A stretch of 64,000 nt of DNA from an uncultured bacterium. GTDB taxonomy: Bacteria > Fidelibacterota > Marinisomatia > Marinisomatales > Marinisomataceae. Positions 19,881-64,000 of the stretch are shown one piece after another; position 1 is the first letter of the stretch; the number at the start of each line of letters is the position of its first letter. A program made the position numbers and the translations under genes. The notes beneath the pieces are model-generated. The model was not told where the DNA came from and did no database searches. It saw only the letters and a list, made by a program, of their open reading frames with translations. The DNA is taken from the NCBI GenBank assembly GCA_943841495.1, contig CALSYL010000003.1, positions 283,294 to 347,293 of the forward strand. The letters run 5' to 3'.

Positions 19881-20816
19881 ATGAGAACAAAACACACTAT
19901 TTTATCACTACTTTTATTGTCACAATTATCTTTTGCACAAGGTCAAGCTGGATCATTATTTCTAACAATTAATCCTGGCGCAAGATCAAACGCTATGGGC
20001 GAAGCCCAAATTGGTGTTGCAAATGATGTTTACGCTACTTACTACAATCCTGCTGGATTAACAAATTTATCAACTAAAGAATTTTCTTTTATGCATACTA
20101 GTTATCTTCCAAATCTTGTTGATGATATGTCTTATGATTTTTTAACTTTTGCAATGCCTTTTAGAGAAGGAGAGTCTATTGGTGGACATTTTACATATCT
20201 AAATTTAGGTGACCAAGTAAGTACTGATGCTAATGGTAATGAATTAGGTTCATTTTCAAGTTATATGTATGCATTAAACGTATCATATGCTAAGCAAATT
20301 GATGACAGTTCTTCATGGGGAATTAATGGTAAATATTTTTACCAAGAGTTGGCTGTAATTAATAGTTTAGATGCTTCTACTGGAAGTTTTGCAGTTGATT
20401 TAGGCTACTTCAAACATAATGCTATGGACAATCCTAACTTAAAACTGGGCGCTGTTCTTACAAATGTTGGACCAGGTGTGAGCTTTGGCGATGGAGATGA
20501 AGACCCCTTACCAACTAGATTAGGCTTAGGCTTATCATTATTAACTTTAGAAGGTCAAGCTACAGTAGCATTCGACTTTAATTATGAGCTAAATGATCAG
20601 ACGGTAGTAACAAATTTAGGTGCTGAATTTTACTTAGTGGAAGACTTTGCTTTGAGAGCTGGATTTTTAAGTGACCCATCTGGCGATTTAAATTATACAA
20701 CTTTAGGTTTAGGTGCTGATCTTGGTGCAATAGGTTTTGATGTAAGTTATGTAATTGGCGGTGAACTTGATCCTCATTCAAACATGGTCAGGTTTTCTTT
20801 AAGTGGATCTTTCTAA
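19881..20816 (+). CDS. PorV/PorQ-like T9SS-associated outer-membrane beta-barrel
   Basis: Signal peptide LLLLSQLSFAQG; GARSNAMGEAQIGVANDVYATYYNPAGL motif; C-terminal RFSLSGSF. Confidence 0.55.
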   Translation: MRTKHTILSLLLLSQLSFAQGQAGSLFLTINPGARSNAMGEAQIGVANDVYATYYNPAGLTNLSTKEFSFMHTSYLPNLVDDMSYDFLTFAMPFREGESIGGHFTYLNLGDQVSTDANGNELGSFSSYMYALNVSYAKQIDDSSSWGINGKYFYQELAVINSLDASTGSFAVDLGYFKHNAMDNPNLKLGAVLTNVGPGVSFGDGDEDPLPTRLGLGLSLLTLEGQATVAFDFNYELNDQTVVTNLGAEFYLVEDFALRAGFLSDPSGDLNYTTLGLGADLGAIGFDVSYVIGGELDPHSNMVRFSLSGSF

Positions 20817-56758: not shown

Positions 56759-57625
56759 ATGTTTAAAAAAATATTTATTGTATTATCGTTTGTTGGTTTT
56801 TTAATGGCTAATTCCCCAAAAGTAATTTTAATTACTGGAACAGCTCTTGGTATTGGAAAGTCTACAGCAGAATATTTAATTGATAAAGGTCATATTGTTT
56901 ATGGTGGAGATATTTTGGTTGAAGAGAACCTATATCTAAATGATATCGGAGGGGTAGCATTAGAAATGGATGTTACCAATCAAGAGCATGTAGATGAAGC
57001 TATTAAGAAAATCATAAGCGATCATGGAAGAATTGACGTACTTGTAAATAATGCCGGTTTGGGCGTATATGGAGCTATTGAAGAAGTTTCTATGGAAGAT
57101 GCTTTTTACCAGTATGACGTCAATTTATTTGGTGTTGCTAGAGTTACAAAATCAGTGCTCCCTTATATGAGAAATCAAAAAAATGGAACGATAATTAACA
57201 TCAGTTCAGTTTTAGGCGAAACTTATGGTCCGTTAGCTGGCTGGTATTTATCAACAAAACATGCTTTAGAGGGATGGTCAGACGCATTAAGAGTTGAATT
57301 GAAAGAATTTGATATTGACGTAGTGATTGTTCAGCCTGGAGCTATAAATACTAATTTTTTTAATGTTTCAAGAAGCTATCTTGATAAATATAAACAAGAC
57401 TCTAGTTATGGACACTTGTATGGAGAACCAGTTGCAGATTCGGAAAGCTCTGTTCTTTCAAATCAATCTGAACCAATTGTGATTGCAAAAGTCATTAATA
57501 AAGCAATTAATGCTCGTAATCCTAAAACAAGGTATGCTGCTGGAGCTTATAGTAAAATGGGTATATTTTTAAGAAGAATTATGACAGACAAAATGTTTGA
57601 TAGATTTATTCTTTTTATTAATTAA
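56759..57625 (+). CDS. short-chain dehydrogenase/reductase with hydrophobic N-terminus (paralogue 1)
   Basis: TGTALGIGK (TGxxxGxG), NNAG, catalytic YLSTK (YxxxK); N-terminal IFIVLSFVGFLMA. Confidence 0.85.
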   Translation: MFKKIFIVLSFVGFLMANSPKVILITGTALGIGKSTAEYLIDKGHIVYGGDILVEENLYLNDIGGVALEMDVTNQEHVDEAIKKIISDHGRIDVLVNNAGLGVYGAIEEVSMEDAFYQYDVNLFGVARVTKSVLPYMRNQKNGTIINISSVLGETYGPLAGWYLSTKHALEGWSDALRVELKEFDIDVVIVQPGAINTNFFNVSRSYLDKYKQDSSYGHLYGEPVADSESSVLSNQSEPIVIAKVINKAINARNPKTRYAAGAYSKMGIFLRRIMTDKMFDRFILFIN

Positions 57626-57675
57626 GAAAGTTGTTTAAGGTTTATAATTATGTTAAAAGTGAATAGGAGATAAAA

Positions 57676-58542
57676 ATGCTTAAAAAATTTATTATATCAA
57701 TATTATTAGTTGGTACTGTATTTGCAACTGACAAGCAAAAAGTTGTATTAATCACTGGTACTGCTCATGGTATCGGAAAATCTACCGCGCAATACTTAAT
57801 AGAAAAAGGGCACATTGTTTATGGCGGAGATATCTTAATTGAAGAGAATCTATATCTCAACGATATTGGTGGAGTAGCATTAGTGATGGATGTAACAAAA
57901 CAAGACCATGTTGATAATGCTATTAATCAAGTTATTGCAGAACAAGGAAGAATAGATGTTTTGGTAAATAATGCTGGAATTGCTGTTGGAAGTGCCATCG
58001 AGGATGTTTCTATGGAAGATGCACTGTATCAATTTGAAGTAAATTTATTTGGTATTGGAAGAACGGTCAAAGCAACTTTACCACATATGCGAGCACAGGG
58101 AAGTGGAACTATTATCAATATTTCCTCCGTACTTGGTAAGGCATATAATCCGCTTTACGGATGGTATGTTTCATCTAAGCATGCACTTGAAGGATGGTCT
58201 GATGTCCTTAGATTGGAAGTTGAACAATTTGGAATAGATGTGGTAATTATTGAGCCAGGTCTAATTAAAACAAATATCGGTAATTATTCTGCAAGATATT
58301 TTGAAAAATATAGTAAAAATTCAGTTTATGCAGACTTCTATAATTCTGACGATTCAGAAGATAGTAGTTTTGATGATTATTCAGACCCAATTGTTATTGC
58401 AAAAGTGATCAATAAAGCCATTGATGCAAAAAATCCTAAAACAAGGTATTCTGCAGGAGCTTATAGCTGGATACTTTTGACAATGAGAAGTATATTACCC
58501 GATAGATGGTTTGATAAATTAATTTCAAACGTTACAGGTTAA
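57676..58542 (+). CDS. short-chain dehydrogenase/reductase with hydrophobic N-terminus (paralogue 2)
   Basis: TGTAHGIGK, NNAG, YVSSK; N-terminal FIISILLVGTVFA; collinear with the upstream paralogue over the full length. Confidence 0.85.
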   Translation: MLKKFIISILLVGTVFATDKQKVVLITGTAHGIGKSTAQYLIEKGHIVYGGDILIEENLYLNDIGGVALVMDVTKQDHVDNAINQVIAEQGRIDVLVNNAGIAVGSAIEDVSMEDALYQFEVNLFGIGRTVKATLPHMRAQGSGTIINISSVLGKAYNPLYGWYVSSKHALEGWSDVLRLEVEQFGIDVVIIEPGLIKTNIGNYSARYFEKYSKNSVYADFYNSDDSEDSSFDDYSDPIVIAKVINKAIDAKNPKTRYSAGAYSWILLTMRSILPDRWFDKLISNVTG

Positions 58543-58560: not shown

Positions 58561-58634
58561 GGGCGATTAGCTCAGTTGGTTAGAGTATCTGCTCGACACG
58601 CAGAGGGTCACTGGTTCGAATCCAGTATCGCCCA
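58561..58634 (+). tRNA. tRNA-Val (anticodon GAC), apparent C at position 33
   Basis: Hand-folded: acceptor GGGCGAT/ATCGCCC, D arm GCTC-AGTTGGTTA-GAGT, anticodon stem TCTGC/GCAGA with loop TCGACAC, variable GGGTC, T arm ACTGG-TTCGAAT-CCAGT, discriminator A; CCA not encoded. Confidence 0.85.
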
Positions 58635-58665
58635 CTTACACATAAAGTCAATATAGACGACAAAA

Positions 58666-58859: not shown

Positions 58860-60473
58860 ATGAAACGTTTTTTAATACTATTAAGTATTGTATGGTTAGC
58901 AACATGTGGTGGTGGTGGCGGCTCTCCCACAGAACCTAAATTACAACTTCCTTCAGTTCAAAACATAGCTTTTACTGTTGAAGAAGATTCTTCGGCAACA
59001 TTTTCTTTTTTAGGAACTGATCCATTATCTCAAACATTGACTTATTCTTTATCTTCTCAACCACAAAATGGACAAATCCAAATTAATGGTAGTTCAGCTG
59101 TTTATACGCCAAATCATAATTTTAATGGAGTTGATACCTTCGCATATTTTGCTACCAATGCTGATGGTAATAGTAATATCGGATCAATTGTTGCAACTAT
59201 TTCGCAAGTAGATGATGAACCATCAAACTTCTGATATTACTGCAACAACAAATGAGGATGAGTCAATAGACATTACTATGAATTTAATTGAGGTAAGATG
59301 GAGATAATATTCTATTTACCATCATTGACAACCCCTTCAAATGGAACAGTATCTTTTGCTGGAGCTATTGCAACTTATACTCCAAATCAAAATTGGTATG
59401 GTACAGATACTTTTACTTTTCAAGTTGAAGATTCTAATGCAAGAAAAATTTTAAATTCTGCTACTGCAACTATTATAGTGAATTCAGTCAATGACGCTCC
59501 AGAGGTAGCTAATGTTAGTGCGTCAGTAAATAGTCGACAAAGCTTTAACAGTGAATCAGTAGATATTAATCTAGAAGGAACAGATGTAGAAGGAGATGAA
59601 TTAACATTTAGTATTGTTAATGATGTTTCGAATGGTTCAACTTCGCTATCAGGGTCGATAGTTACCTATACCCCAAATGCGAATTATGATGGAACTGATA
59701 CATTTACCTACAAGGCTAATGATGGTCAATTAGATAGCAATACTGCATCTGGTACAATCACTGTCACTGATATTAATCCAGCTATATCTTTTTCAGCGAC
59801 ACCTACCACAGGTACAAAAGATTTAAGGGTTGTATTTACAAATAATTCAACGAATTATTCATCCGTATTATGGGACTTTGGCGATGGTGCTACAAGTACA
59901 GATGATAGTCCAGTTCACATTTATAGCAATAATGGGATATATGATGTCACTGTAACATTAGACAGTGATTTAGGATCTACATCTCAAATATTTGAAGATT
60001 ATATTGTTGTAGATAACATTTCTTTACCAGCTCTAATTGTAGATCCGAAGTATAATTATACGTCAGTAGGAAAAAATGTAACCGTACAGCTTAACGTTTT
60101 AGGAGTTACAGATCTTACTTCTGCACAGATGATTCTAAATTATTCAACAAGCGATTTGACTTTAAATAGTGTTGTAGCTGGAGATTTTTTAAAGGGCAAT
60201 ACTGCTCCAATGTTTATATCAGAAGAGACAGATGACAGCGCAAATAATTCAACTAGCTTAAAAATATTTACTTCAACGCTTTCAGCTGATAAACCTAGTG
60301 TTTCAGGAGATGGAATTTTGGCAACTTTAAACTTTACCATTGAATCATCCGCTCAAGATGATATTATTTCTATTTTATCTTTTGATGAGATTGCTTCCCA
60401 AATTTTGCTTGATATTAATGGAGATCAAATAACAACAGAACAAACAGTAGATGGATACTTTATCAATGAATAA
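58860..60473 (+). pseudogene. surface lipoprotein: three tandem ~95-aa cadherin-like repeats, PKD, cohesin-like domain; three frame disruptions
   Basis: Lipobox WLATCGGGGGS; repeats ending VDDEP / VNDAP / TDINPA with YTPNxN(F/W/Y)xG(V/T)DTF cores; PKD hallmark WDFGDG; cohesin-like VGKNVTVQLNVLGVTDLTSAQMILNYSTSDLTL...GDGILATLNFTIESS. Repeat 2 is readable only by switching frames at about 59221-59229, 59294-59304 and 59333-59337. Confidence 0.7.
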
Positions 60474-63400
60474 AAAAATAATTGTAATATTAACCCTGGT
60501 CTTGAATTTAGTTTTTGCTCAAACAGATACAGATAGTGATGGATTTGCTGATGATGTTGATAATTCTCCTTTGCATTGGAACCCTTTTCAGGAAGATGTG
60601 GATGGGGGATGGAATTGGAGACTGGTCTGACCCATCAACTATCAGGGTGTCATTATCAGAGTCTTACGCATCACATGTTGTATCATTAACTGATAAAATC
60701 AATGCTGCTTTTAAAAGAGATTTACAGCGAAGATAGAACAATAGTTTCTCTTGAGTTTAGAACAAGTGGACGATCCTAATGGTCATATATCTACTAATGC
60801 ATCCTCTTATGAAATTTCGGCAAGCGATGTCTCTTTGCTTAATTTTGACACAAAATATTTATATGATTATGAATTGTCTGTCACTAATAAATCTTCTTCT
60901 TCAGCGGAAGCCGTTGATACGCTTCAACTTAGAATATATTTAGAAGGACAATCGCGAGCAATCACCGACCAATCGAACAACAACAATTGTAAGAACAGGT
61001 TTAACAGAAAAATTTGTATATGGATCCTTTTGCTGATCCTAATGCTGAACCACAATTTGGAGACTTGAATGTAATGTGGAGAGCTCCTGGATTTGGGGAA
61101 AATCAAGCATTTTATGGAGATATAAATGGCGATGGGTTAACAGACATGATTTTTGGTGACTATAGGGTAAATTATTTTGGAAGAAACTTTAACATTCACC
61201 AGCTTGCGAATCCAGTGTATATGATTAATAATGGCAATCTTAACTTTGATGGACGTTACAATAATTTTGAAAATAAAACAATTTTTCACTCACCCAATAT
61301 GGCTGTCGAAGCGGATTTGAATGGCGATGGTATTGATGAGATATTAAATTTTGGAGAGCATTATCATACAAATTGGCCACCTCATCATCCACATTGGAAT
61401 TACATTAAGAAGTGGATGGACTCAAGAGGTTTAGTATTTAATCAAGACTATAATGATGATAGTCAAAAAAAGCTCAGATATTTTTCATACGATAATACTG
61501 GTCTTGTAGATCAATACAGTAAAATTACACATGGAGCAACACCAAATTCTTCTGATGGTTCATTTTTCCTTTCAATGTATGCGAGTGGTGTTGGTGATAT
61601 CGATGGAGATGGAGATAATGACATTATAAGTACTGGCTATTCATCTGTTTCATCAACAGGTAGGTGGTTTATGATACTTGAAAATGATGGTAATGGAAAT
61701 TTTGATTCAACTTATAGAGAAACCCAATTTGATTCTGCTCAAGGACATCTTGTAGTGCACGATGTTACTGGAGATGGGTTAAGCGATGTCGTACTTGGAT
61801 TAAGACGTTACCATCTACAGGAAGCTACGATTACAATTTGGCTTTAATTAAAGGCAATTCTTCAGGAGATTTCGATACAGATATTAGCGATATAGTTGTG
61901 CTAGATAAGGTTCATCCTAAATTAATGGTGAGAAATGTTTATGTTGAGGATATAAATGAAGATGGTTCAGAAGAAATTATAGCTTATTATACTGGTGGTT
62001 ATGGAGGAAAACAACCAAGGAGTAGCTGATAATGAAATTCCAAATCAAGTAAAAATTTATGAAATAGTAGATGAATCTCAGGGTTATGTGAATGATATAA
62101 CCTCCTCATTTTTTATCAATAATGAAGATGAAATGAATTTCTATGCTCAATCCGCATTTTTGCGTTTACAGGATATTGATTTAGATGGTCATTTAGACTT
62201 AGTTCCTTCATTTAGGCTAGAACCCTATGAAGATTATCCTCAAAATGCTTATAGAGGAGATTGGAATGATTCAAGAGGATTTCAATTTTTCAAATTTTAT
62301 CCACATCTTGGAAAATTTAAAGTAGTTGATCTAGGGCGTTTTTAAGTCTTTTACAAATAACTTCCCACATTATAATGCCTACGATATGGAAGATTTAAAT
62401 GGAGATGGCTCTTTAGAATTTATTCATGTTACTGATGGACAAGGGGTGTTTGTCTATGAATATGATTTTGGCAATTATTGTGGAGATTCTGGAAACGGAC
62501 AAGCTTCCTTTAGAATAAATAATTTAGAAAATGATAATTATTCAAAAAGTTTGACAGAAATATCATTAACCCCATATTTTGATTGTGCTAGTTTTACTCC
62601 TGTAAAATATTTTATGGCTGTTGGAGATTCTCAAACCAATACTACAAATATCTTAGATTGGACCGAAGTTAATCTGAATGATATAAATCTGAATTTAAAT
62701 ATCTCTTTAAATGACCATACCGAATACTTCGTTAGTTTAAAAGCAGAAAATTCTGGCGCAGATAACAATGACATCATTACACAGTCGTTTACTACCTATA
62801 AAAAATTATTAGGAGATTCAGATAATGATTGGGATCTAGATATTAATGATTTAAACGCTTTTGTCAATGCTTGGCCAGGGATTGATATAGGGCCAGCTTC
62901 AGGAGCTGCTCCTTACATGATGCCTAGTCTTGATAATAAAAGTGACGTATTTGATATGAATGTATTTACACGAAATTGGTTGTGGAGCTCATCAAGCAGG
63001 GAATTTGAGCGTATAAATACCAATACTACTTCAACGAATGAACATAATATCGAGTTTTTAAAAGATTGAAAATAAGATTTCTATTATCATTCCAAATGAT
63101 ATTACTAGTGGACGAATTCAAATTGATAAGTCAGATGTGAATACTAAATACAAAATTGAAAATAATATTGGAAATATGTTATTATTACAAGATGATCATG
63201 AATTTTATCAAATCTCTTTTGGAAATCTTTCTAAAGCTGATGGTTTAGTAGTTATTGAGGTTGTTAACGGAACAATTCCTGACGAATTATCTATTCAATC
63301 TTTTAAAATTGATGGATCTACTGCAAGCAATAAAATAATATTATCTAAATCGGAAAATAATTTCCTTTACCAGAACTATCCAAACCCATTTAGCAAAGAA

Positions 63401-63634
63401 ACATCTATTAAATTTAACTTAACAGAAGAGAGTGATATTGAAATTTTAATATATGATGTAAGAGGAAGAGTAGTAAAAACTTTTGATGAAGGTATAAAAG
63501 TTCCAGGTCCACATGAACTGATTTGGGATGGTACAAATGAAGAGGGTGATAAAGTTTCTAGTGGGATTTATTTTTATCAATTAAGATCAAAAAATTATAC
63601 CAAAGCCAGAAAAATGACTTTAATTAAAAACTGA
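60466..63634 (+). pseudogene. T9SS-sorted surface protein: TSP3-like repeat, seven FG-GAP blades, dockerin-like segment, Por C-terminal domain; about nine or more frame disruptions
   Basis: Signal peptide MNKKIIVILTLVLNLVFAQ from ATG 60466; DTDSDGFADDVDN...DVDGDGIGD; FG-GAP cores GDINGDGLTD, ADLNGDGIDE, GDIDGDGDND, HDVTGDGLSD, EDINEDGSEE, QDIDLDGHLD, EDLNGDGSLE; GDSDNDWDLDINDLNAFV; C-terminal FLYQNYPNPFSKETSIKFNL...GIYFYQLRS. Eight ORF-track fragments are joined by hand translation. Confidence 0.7.
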
Positions 63635-63642
63635 GGGCAATT

Positions 63643-64000
63643 ATGAAAAAACTCTTAATCATATTCATCCACTTGCAACATTGATCTGGACCTGCTCTTC
63701 ACCAACCAAGAGTGAACCAGCTCCACAACCACCAACCGTAAACAACTTAAGTATTACAACGAACGAGGATACTCCAACAACCTTTACCATGACTGGGTCG
63801 GATCCAGAAGGCGCAGCCTTAACCTTTAGTGTCTCAACTCAACCGCAGAATGGAACGGTCACTGCAAGTGGTGCAGCTGGAACCTATACTCCCAATGAAA
63901 ACTTTAATGGAACTGATACCTTTGCCTATATTGCAAGTGATGGTGCTCTTAGCAGTACGCTGGTCTTGTATCAGTAACTGTCACCGCAGTAGATGATGAT
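63643..64000 (+). pseudogene. second tandem-repeat surface lipoprotein, 3' end outside window, at least two frame disruptions
   Basis: MKKLLIIFI (ATG 63643) stops after 13 codons; the next frame continues HPLATLIWTCSSPTKSEP...NEDTPTTFTMTGSDPEGAALTFSVSTQPQNGTVTASGAAGTYTPNENFNGTDTFAYIASDG; after about 63950 a third frame reads YAGLVSVTVTAVDDD. Confidence 0.6.

Follow-up and report, generated by a model that had tools for sequence, protein, structure and literature searches.

Introduction

Can a cohesin on a lipoprotein and a dockerin on a protein exported by a type IX secretion system (T9SS), encoded side by side, serve as socket and plug that keep the exported protein at the cell surface? The question is raised by a 64,000-nucleotide stretch of DNA, here called the window, from an uncultured bacterium of the Marinisomataceae (Fidelibacterota; assembly GCA_943841495.1, contig CALSYL010000003.1, positions 283,294 to 347,293 of the forward strand). 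Its last part, which we call the island, carries three surface-protein genes, A, B and C. An earlier note, made from the sequence alone, had proposed a cohesin-like module at the end of gene A and a dockerin-like segment in gene B, and every motif it quoted is present where it was placed. With moderate confidence, we favor a reading suggested by sequence comparison, in which the island would carry a second copy of a two-gene unit, conserved in Marinimicrobia, that tethers proteins to the surface: a cohesin lipoprotein holding a dockerin-bearing T9SS cargo.

The Marinimicrobia, or SAR406, count among the uncultured bacteria that are most abundant in the dark ocean. The host assembly comprises 958,662 bases in 8 contigs, with a completeness score of 94.6%, and the window is part of contig C3. 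Used as a query for related loci, the window fragment retrieved no relatives; those retrieved with a paralogue of the island pair from the core of the genome bear the names Marinimicrobia, Neomarinimicrobiota or Fidelibacterota, that is, SAR406.

Results

Gene A ends in a cohesin

The domain at 60.0-60.45 kb, which closes gene A, had been proposed to be a cohesin, and three lines of comparison bear this out; the possibility that it belongs to another beta-sandwich family was checked, and the domain is a cohesin. Pfam PF00963 matches the open reading frame (ORF) at 59298-60473 with an E-value of 1.6e-9 and 38.5 bits against a cut-off of 24.1, and it matches the intact 536-residue form of gene A, found on a metagenome contig described below, with 40.8 bits; paralogues and relatives pass the cut-off too. 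A profile built from the island cohesin and seven relatives matched 20 cohesins in the PDB at E ≤ 0.0022, the best being 3l8q (3.7e-11). The AlphaFold2 (AF2) model of the domain is confident (predicted local distance difference test [pLDDT] 88.7, predicted template-modeling score [pTM] 0.84), and the 50 best Foldseek matches listed for it in the PDB are all cohesins, with a best E-value of 4.9e-10 and TM-scores of 0.63-0.79. On these sequence and model comparisons we regard it as settled that the C-terminal domain of gene A is a true cohesin.

The rest of the protein is of lipoprotein type. The cadherin-like and PKD modules ascribed to it are recovered by Pfam, which finds Big_9 and PKD domains in the same gene. 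Its N-terminus, MKRFLILLSIVWLATC, has a hydrophobic leader that ends in WLATC. The cysteine of this putative lipobox is kept in the core paralogue (LINC) and in the homologue from congener G018 (LWAC), and small cohesin proteins from three more distant genomes (G044, G045 and G058) also show a cysteine, in the contexts VSC, WSC, LAC and AGC. We infer that the gene A product is lipidated.

Gene B encodes a probable T9SS cargo protein

Gene B begins before gene A has ended (60466 versus 60473). The Por-secretion sorting domain assigned to its C-terminus was confirmed by TIGR04183, which scores 38.6 bits (cut-off 23; E 7.8e-10) in 63137-63634, and a whole-genome scan for T9SS tails retrieved the same domain. 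Its description as a protein with a TSP3 repeat and FG-GAP repeats stands in the second part, Pfam finding the FG-GAP repeats, but the TSP3 match is weak (E 0.004).

The T9SS components searched for were SprA, PorV and PorU. The window gene taken for PorV-like is matched by NF033709 with an E-value of 3.7e-61 and 207.5 bits against a cut-off of 90, and the SprA translocon is encoded elsewhere in the genome by a gene for 2054 residues (544 bits). The PorU sortase was not detectable in the host genome (G000) or in two near-complete congeners (G013 and G032), where cargo tails alone match the model. Three larger relatives (G044, G045 and G059) have full-length PorU, at 547-660 bits.

A module in gene B related to dockerins

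The two segments of gene B picked out earlier, GDSDNDWDLDINDLNAFVNAW and DNKSDVFDMNVFTRNW, both lie inside a single conserved module of 70 residues. By the F-hand criterion a dockerin has two tandem calcium-loop/helix repeats with Asp or Asn at loop positions 1, 3, 5, 9 and 12. The first repeat of the module, DSDNDWDLDIND, is complete, with Asp at loop positions 1, 3, 5, 7, 9 and 12. Further features are a conserved hairpin with the pattern GP-x-x-G-x-x-P and a W-x-W motif. The AF2 model of the module (pLDDT 94.4) consists of a loop and helix, a beta-hairpin, and a second loop and helix.

Two further proteins of the host conserve the module, as do 46 of 61 related genomes, and a profile of eight copies retrieved 889 clusters at E ≤ 1e-3 among 1.84 billion representative proteins. 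Between its end and the C-terminus lie a median of 220 residues across the family. The distance is close to 220 residues in nearly every case, and the family architecture is therefore a variable payload followed by the module, a linker domain and the T9SS tail. Neither the linker domain of gene B nor its family equivalents, which occupy a conserved position and measure about 125-140 residues, gave a match in Pfam or the PDB. A derivation of the linker from a cohesin-like sandwich was considered and could not be established: hhalign gave probabilities of 73% and 40% to cohesin, and the linker profile matched no PDB sequence at all.

Profile comparisons tie the module to dockerins. Dockerin_1 matches 16 of 79 family members, two of which pass the cut-off (24.0 and 24.3 bits against 22.9), and one member aligns to profile positions 2-54 of 57. 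When alignments were compared by hhalign, the module family matched a mixed dockerin alignment over 55 columns (97.4% probability, E 1.5e-11) and an alignment of five solved dockerins alone over 54 columns (91.4%, E 9e-7), both repeats being covered each time. Searching the PDB with the module profile listed 16 sequences, 12 of them dockerins, each individually non-significant. The profile also retrieved, at E 4e-15, the 342-residue protein P0117, which is a Dockerin_1 protein (E 8e-37), and one of whose domains matches PDB dockerins at E 2.5e-6. Thus the proposal that the 62.8-63.0 kb segment is dockerin-like fails for the window copy alone when judged by Dockerin_1 but holds for the family to which that copy belongs. 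From the alignments we read the module as a divergent dockerin, homologous to solved dockerins over both repeats.

Two proteins gave multiple stretches in the module search, 19 in P0013 (2148 residues) and six in P0117. Both are built from tandem repeats of the DxDxDG type, and P0117 also has a weak Planctomycete-extracellular match.

Cohesin genes adjoin module genes across relatives

There are exactly two cohesin domains in the host genome. The one outside the island belongs to the core pair. There an intact gene for a lipoprotein-type protein of 346 residues, comprising a cohesin and two PKD domains, stops 3 nucleotides short of a second intact gene, whose 1585-residue product bears the module in its tail together with a T9SS sorting domain. 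Congener G018 has two pairs; in one, the gene for a 977-residue cadherin/PKD/cohesin lipoprotein is followed by a cargo gene whose tail is 44% identical to that of gene B. At least 12 further congeners have a cohesin gene directly upstream of a module-bearing gene and on its strand, and pairs occur in other families of the order as well: two in G044, and others in G045, G058, G043 and G059. The paired genes usually overlap, by 11-26 nucleotides. The earlier note had asked for intact orthologous pairs in relatives, and intact pairs exist: the paralogous pair of the same genome, a pair in G018, near-identical copies on two metagenome contigs, and pairs in other families of the order. It had also called the arrangement unusual; it is instead a recurrent, conserved Marinimicrobia cassette and no oddity of the island.

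Five larger relatives allowed us to ask what the cohesin gene is associated with. They have 34-81 T9SS-tail genes and only 1-4 genes with the module (34 and 2 in G044, 41 and 1 in G045, 47 and 1 in G058, 74 and 4 in G043, and 81 and 2 in G059). In G044, G045 and G058 each of the four cohesin genes has a module gene directly downstream, as does one each in G043 and G059; the second cohesin of G043 is at a contig edge, and the second match in G059 is weak and lies inside a 5138-residue frame. The association is therefore between cohesin and module, not between cohesin and T9SS cargo in general, and we rejected the idea that the cohesin merely neighbors any T9SS cargo gene. These comparisons between genomes are the strongest support for the pairing.

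In the host genome itself the module is found on all three clear T9SS-tail proteins (C3:105359-110116 on the minus strand, C3:196836-199370 on the plus strand, and window 60466-63634), to which one weak match on contig C4 can be added. The three module proteins are an FG-GAP propeller protein, a propeller protein without family assignment and an M43-like peptidase.

Several observations weigh against a dedicated cohesin-dockerin pair. The second calcium loop of the module retains only positions 5, 9 and 12 (D49, D53 and D56), and the family consensus agrees with the window copy in this. The window copy has no Pfam Dockerin_1 (PF00404) match at E ≤ 1; the NCBIfam and Pfam searches on it found no dockerin, their sole trace being a weak match to a GC-type dockerin (E 0.096), and a Dockerin_1 scan of the whole genome gave nothing above the cut-off. 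Foldseek returned no dockerin for the confident module model (best E 5), which is weak evidence, as small loop-rich domains are hard for Foldseek. The lipobox of gene A (LATC) has an atypical Thr at position -1. The 844-residue M43-like peptidase of the host bears the module without an adjacent cohesin, and seven congeners keep a module-bearing protein without a detectable cohesin. Among them is G032 (2 contigs, 95% complete), whose module protein of about 857 residues is the counterpart of the host peptidase. The peptidase and the cohesin-less congeners indicate that the module can persist without a partner.

Some of these facts suit another account of the module, namely that it is a calcium-stabilised structural part of a C-terminal cassette (module, linker and sorting domain) for T9SS handling or attachment, and that the cohesin binds something else. 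A fixed distance from the C-terminus would be expected of such a part, as would its presence on every clear T9SS-tail protein of the host, its retention by the M43-like protease in genomes with and without a cohesin, and the silence of Foldseek on dockerins. This account nevertheless has to contend with the relatives, in which T9SS handling evidently proceeds without the module on nearly all cargo; with the placement of cohesin genes directly upstream of exactly the module genes, where contigs allow this to be seen, and the rough agreement between cohesin and module counts; and with the homology of both repeats to bona fide dockerins. We judge it unlikely.

A side observation concerns the gene preceding the pair. 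In other Marinimicrobia families the cohesin gene comes after one that encodes a secreted protein, LpoB/CsgG-like in its N-terminal part and DUF5683 in its C-terminal part, and the result is a conserved three-gene cassette (coordinates in Table 1). The core pair in the genus of the window is without this first gene.

The frameshifts of the island

Genes A and B are both broken in the assembly. Gene A has +1 insertions at 59222, 59295 and 59336, and gene B has eight single-base insertions and one single-base deletion (sites in Table 1). A 29-base pattern around one shift site was used to retrieve two metagenome contigs, Ga0181604_10011792 and Ga0070746_10008241 (L032 and L033 in our numbering), which carry the same island with intact genes: gene A encodes 536 residues on L033 and gene B 1058 residues on L032. 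At the amino acid level the window copy of gene B is 95% identical to the intact homologue, and the window differs from the metagenome contigs by 3-5.5% in substitutions. When the window copy is projected on the intact frames there are no in-frame stops, and the ratio of nonsynonymous to synonymous substitution rates (dN/dS) is 0.13 in gene B, while gene A has 0.17, values by which these sequence comparisons place both genes under purifying selection.

One could take the 12 frameshifts in genes A and B as real mutations, with the pair dead in this strain and the island decaying, and their confinement to the island, next to 58 kb of clean housekeeping genes, would be in keeping with that. The pattern of the changes is not: 11 of the 12 single-base indels relative to the metagenome contigs are +1 insertions in the window, mostly doubling the neighboring base; nonsense substitutions are lacking and dN/dS is low; and at the three gene B sites covered by both independent metagenome contigs, the two agree against the window. 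The island is, moreover, the last 7 kb of its contig, and public relatives include long-read metagenome-assembled genomes, in which low-coverage insertion errors are plausible. We consider a decaying island very improbable. The frameshifts are very probably sequencing or assembly insertions at a low-coverage contig end rather than gene decay, which, if correct, leaves the population with a functional pair.

Setting of the island

The left border of the island is a tRNA-Val gene, just downstream of which the frameshifted surface-protein genes start (Table 1). Genes A, B and C are each split into many ORF fragments; the 58 kb before them are clean, and the contig ends at window coordinate 65846. 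Gene C, the third gene, is intact on both metagenome contigs (670 residues on L032, 685 on L033) and is without cohesin, dockerin or sorting domain.

Strains differ in the order of these genes: on L033 a lipoprotein gene resembling gene C (L033 303-2360) stands 5′ of gene A, and the tRNA-Val gene is absent from both L032 and L033. The island has the look of an array in which surface lipoprotein genes are shuffled. Just 5′ of the tRNA-Val gene lie two tandem paralogues, each of 288 residues, of the short-chain dehydrogenase family, with hydrophobic N-terminal leaders.

Table 1. Coordinates of the features discussed (window coordinates unless a contig is named)
Feature	Coordinates	Strand	Content or evidence
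PorV/PorQ-family outer-membrane protein	19881-20816	+	NF033709
Short-chain dehydrogenase paralogues (two)	56759-58542		288 residues each
tRNA-Val(GAC)	58561-58635	+	ARAGORN; left border of the island
Gene A	58860-60473	+	Signal peptide with Cys16 (WLATC), three Big_9/cadherin-like repeats, PKD domain, C-terminal cohesin (Pfam)
Cohesin module of gene A	60018-60470	+	Pfam PF00963, family profile against PDB, AF2 and Foldseek
Gene B	60466-63634	+	Signal peptide, weak TSP3-like stretch, FG-GAP propeller region, Ig/FN3-like domain, dockerin-like module, linker domain, type A sorting domain
Indel sites of gene B	60604, 60709, 60768, 60946, 61008, 61801, 62006, 62334, 63066
Dockerin-like module	62788-62997	+	70 residues: F-hand 1, beta-hairpin (IGPASGAAPY), truncated F-hand 2, W-x-W helix
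Linker domain between module and sorting domain	62998-63376	+	About 125 residues; position conserved across family
T9SS type A C-terminal sorting domain	63377-63631	+	TIGR04183, PF18962
Gene C	63644-64000, running on to the contig end at 65846	+	Second lipoprotein-type protein, Big_9 and FG-GAP repeats; frameshifted
LpoB/CsgG-like/DUF5683 genes	L022 1614-2612; L023 1219-2298; L024 466-1911; L025 1111-2103; L026 8309-9355

Discussion

At the level of sequence, the analyses establish which domains are present, that the module is homologous to dockerins, that cohesin and module genes adjoin each other in a specific and conserved way, and that both genes of the island pair are under purifying selection. 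For the two proteins we propose the following course. Gene A would be exported by the Sec pathway, lipidated at its conserved cysteine and inserted in the outer membrane, where a cadherin-like and PKD stalk would present the single C-terminal cohesin. Gene B, which would be translationally coupled to gene A, would leave the cell through the T9SS by virtue of its C-terminal sorting domain, SprA and PorV being present. Its divergent dockerin, about 125 residues upstream of the sorting domain and made of two calcium-loop/helix repeats with a hairpin insert, would then dock in the cohesin, presumably in a Ca2+-dependent manner, so that the FG-GAP propeller would sit at the tip of the lipoprotein stalk and thereby be kept on the cell surface. 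We infer the exposure and orientation of gene A at the surface, the physical contact of cohesin and dockerin, for which the conserved adjacency of their genes speaks, and its dependence on calcium; taken as a whole, the pair is probably a one-to-one surface tether for T9SS cargo.

Contact between the two proteins might instead take place in the periplasm. An inward-facing cohesin lipoprotein could be a dedicated escort or holding factor that delivers a very large partner to the SprA translocon. The genes are paired strictly one to one and are translationally coupled, as chaperone-client pairs typically are; many partners are very large (947-2456 residues); and in other families a periplasm-type LpoB/CsgG-like protein with DUF5683 is encoded just upstream. 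Yet the long cadherin-like, Big_9 and PKD arrays of gene A and of its 977-residue G018 homologue are typical of extracellular stalks, cohesin-dockerin pairs of known function are extracellular, and the calcium of seawater favors an extracellular site of interaction. We regard a periplasmic role as improbable, and continue to favor retention at the cell surface.

If the surface tether is correct, it may extend beyond this pair. Because no PorU is detectable in the host genus and every clear T9SS cargo of the host carries the dockerin, one can entertain, tentatively and as the less likely case, that lipoprotein cohesin and internal dockerin provide a general, protein-based means of retaining selected T9SS cargo in Marinimicrobia and related lineages, and that in this streamlined genus, with genomes of about 1 Mb, they are possibly the main or only route, replacing covalent attachment to lipopolysaccharide (LPS).

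A plug-and-socket tether, if real, would give T9SS cargo a second principle of anchoring, alongside attachment to LPS by a sortase. With it would come a dockerin sub-family, 889 sequence clusters in size, only a minority of whose members are detected by the Pfam dockerin model, and it would bear on how SAR406/Marinimicrobia display enzymes and adhesins on their surface. For the host genome, the apparently frameshift-riddled island is very probably an assembly artefact.

Relation to known systems

Cellulosomal type I pairs, represented by Clostridium thermocellum CipA/Xyn10B (PDB 1OHZ and 2CCL) and by C. acetobutylicum 6KGC, share the fold and family of the island cohesin: its best Foldseek match is to 6KGC, with 2CCL and 1OHZ among the matches listed. 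The module, for its part, aligns to dockerin profiles over both calcium-loop/helix repeats. The organization differs. Cellulosomes are built on a multi-cohesin scaffoldin, whereas here each protein has one cohesin and that protein is a lipoprotein; the partners are not carbohydrate-active enzymes but the two kinds of propeller protein and the M43-like peptidase. Unlike cellulosomal dockerins, the module shows a W-x-W motif, a second loop that is truncated and, as a conserved insert, a beta-hairpin; its window copy is missed by Pfam, and it is internal, being followed by the linker domain and the T9SS tail. With a single cohesin per protein, two in the genome and no carbohydrate-active cargo, we rejected a cellulosome as the explanation.

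Non-cellulosomal cohesins and dockerins have been surveyed (Peer et al. 2009, as cited in PMC8542988). The Archaeoglobus fulgidus cohesin (2XDH) and the dockerin of C. perfringens NagH/NagJ (2JNK/2OZN) are, like the modules described here, single modules on proteins unrelated to the breakdown of cellulose; 2XDH ranks third among the structural matches of the island cohesin, and the dockerin of 2JNK can be aligned with canonical dockerin repeats. In the papers searched we found no description of a lipoprotein cohesin and a T9SS-tailed dockerin protein as fixed neighbors, nor of this dockerin sub-family, and none that names Marinimicrobia or SAR406 together with cohesin or dockerin. What appears to be new, on the evidence of the gene neighborhoods, is thus the conserved one-to-one cassette of lipoprotein cohesin and T9SS dockerin, of which the island copy would be one more member.

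The nearest published idea is the predicted cellulosome-like system of the Cloacimonadota 'Ca. Stygibacter' (PMC8542988), a member of the same superphylum in which cohesin and dockerin likewise occur together with a C-terminal domain for the T9SS. In that system a multi-cohesin scaffoldin of 3,755 residues bears the T9SS tail, and the enzymes have C-terminal dockerins. In the Marinimicrobia cassette, by contrast, one cargo protein has both tail and dockerin, a lipoprotein has the cohesin, and the pairing is one-to-one and encoded in cis.

The closest parallel in presumed outcome is found in Porphyromonas gingivalis, where T9SS cargo is anchored by the PorU sortase and A-LPS (review PMC5445135), through covalent attachment to lipopolysaccharide. 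In both cases the exported T9SS cargo would stay on the cell surface; the mechanism in Marinimicrobia would be different, a plug and socket formed between two proteins.

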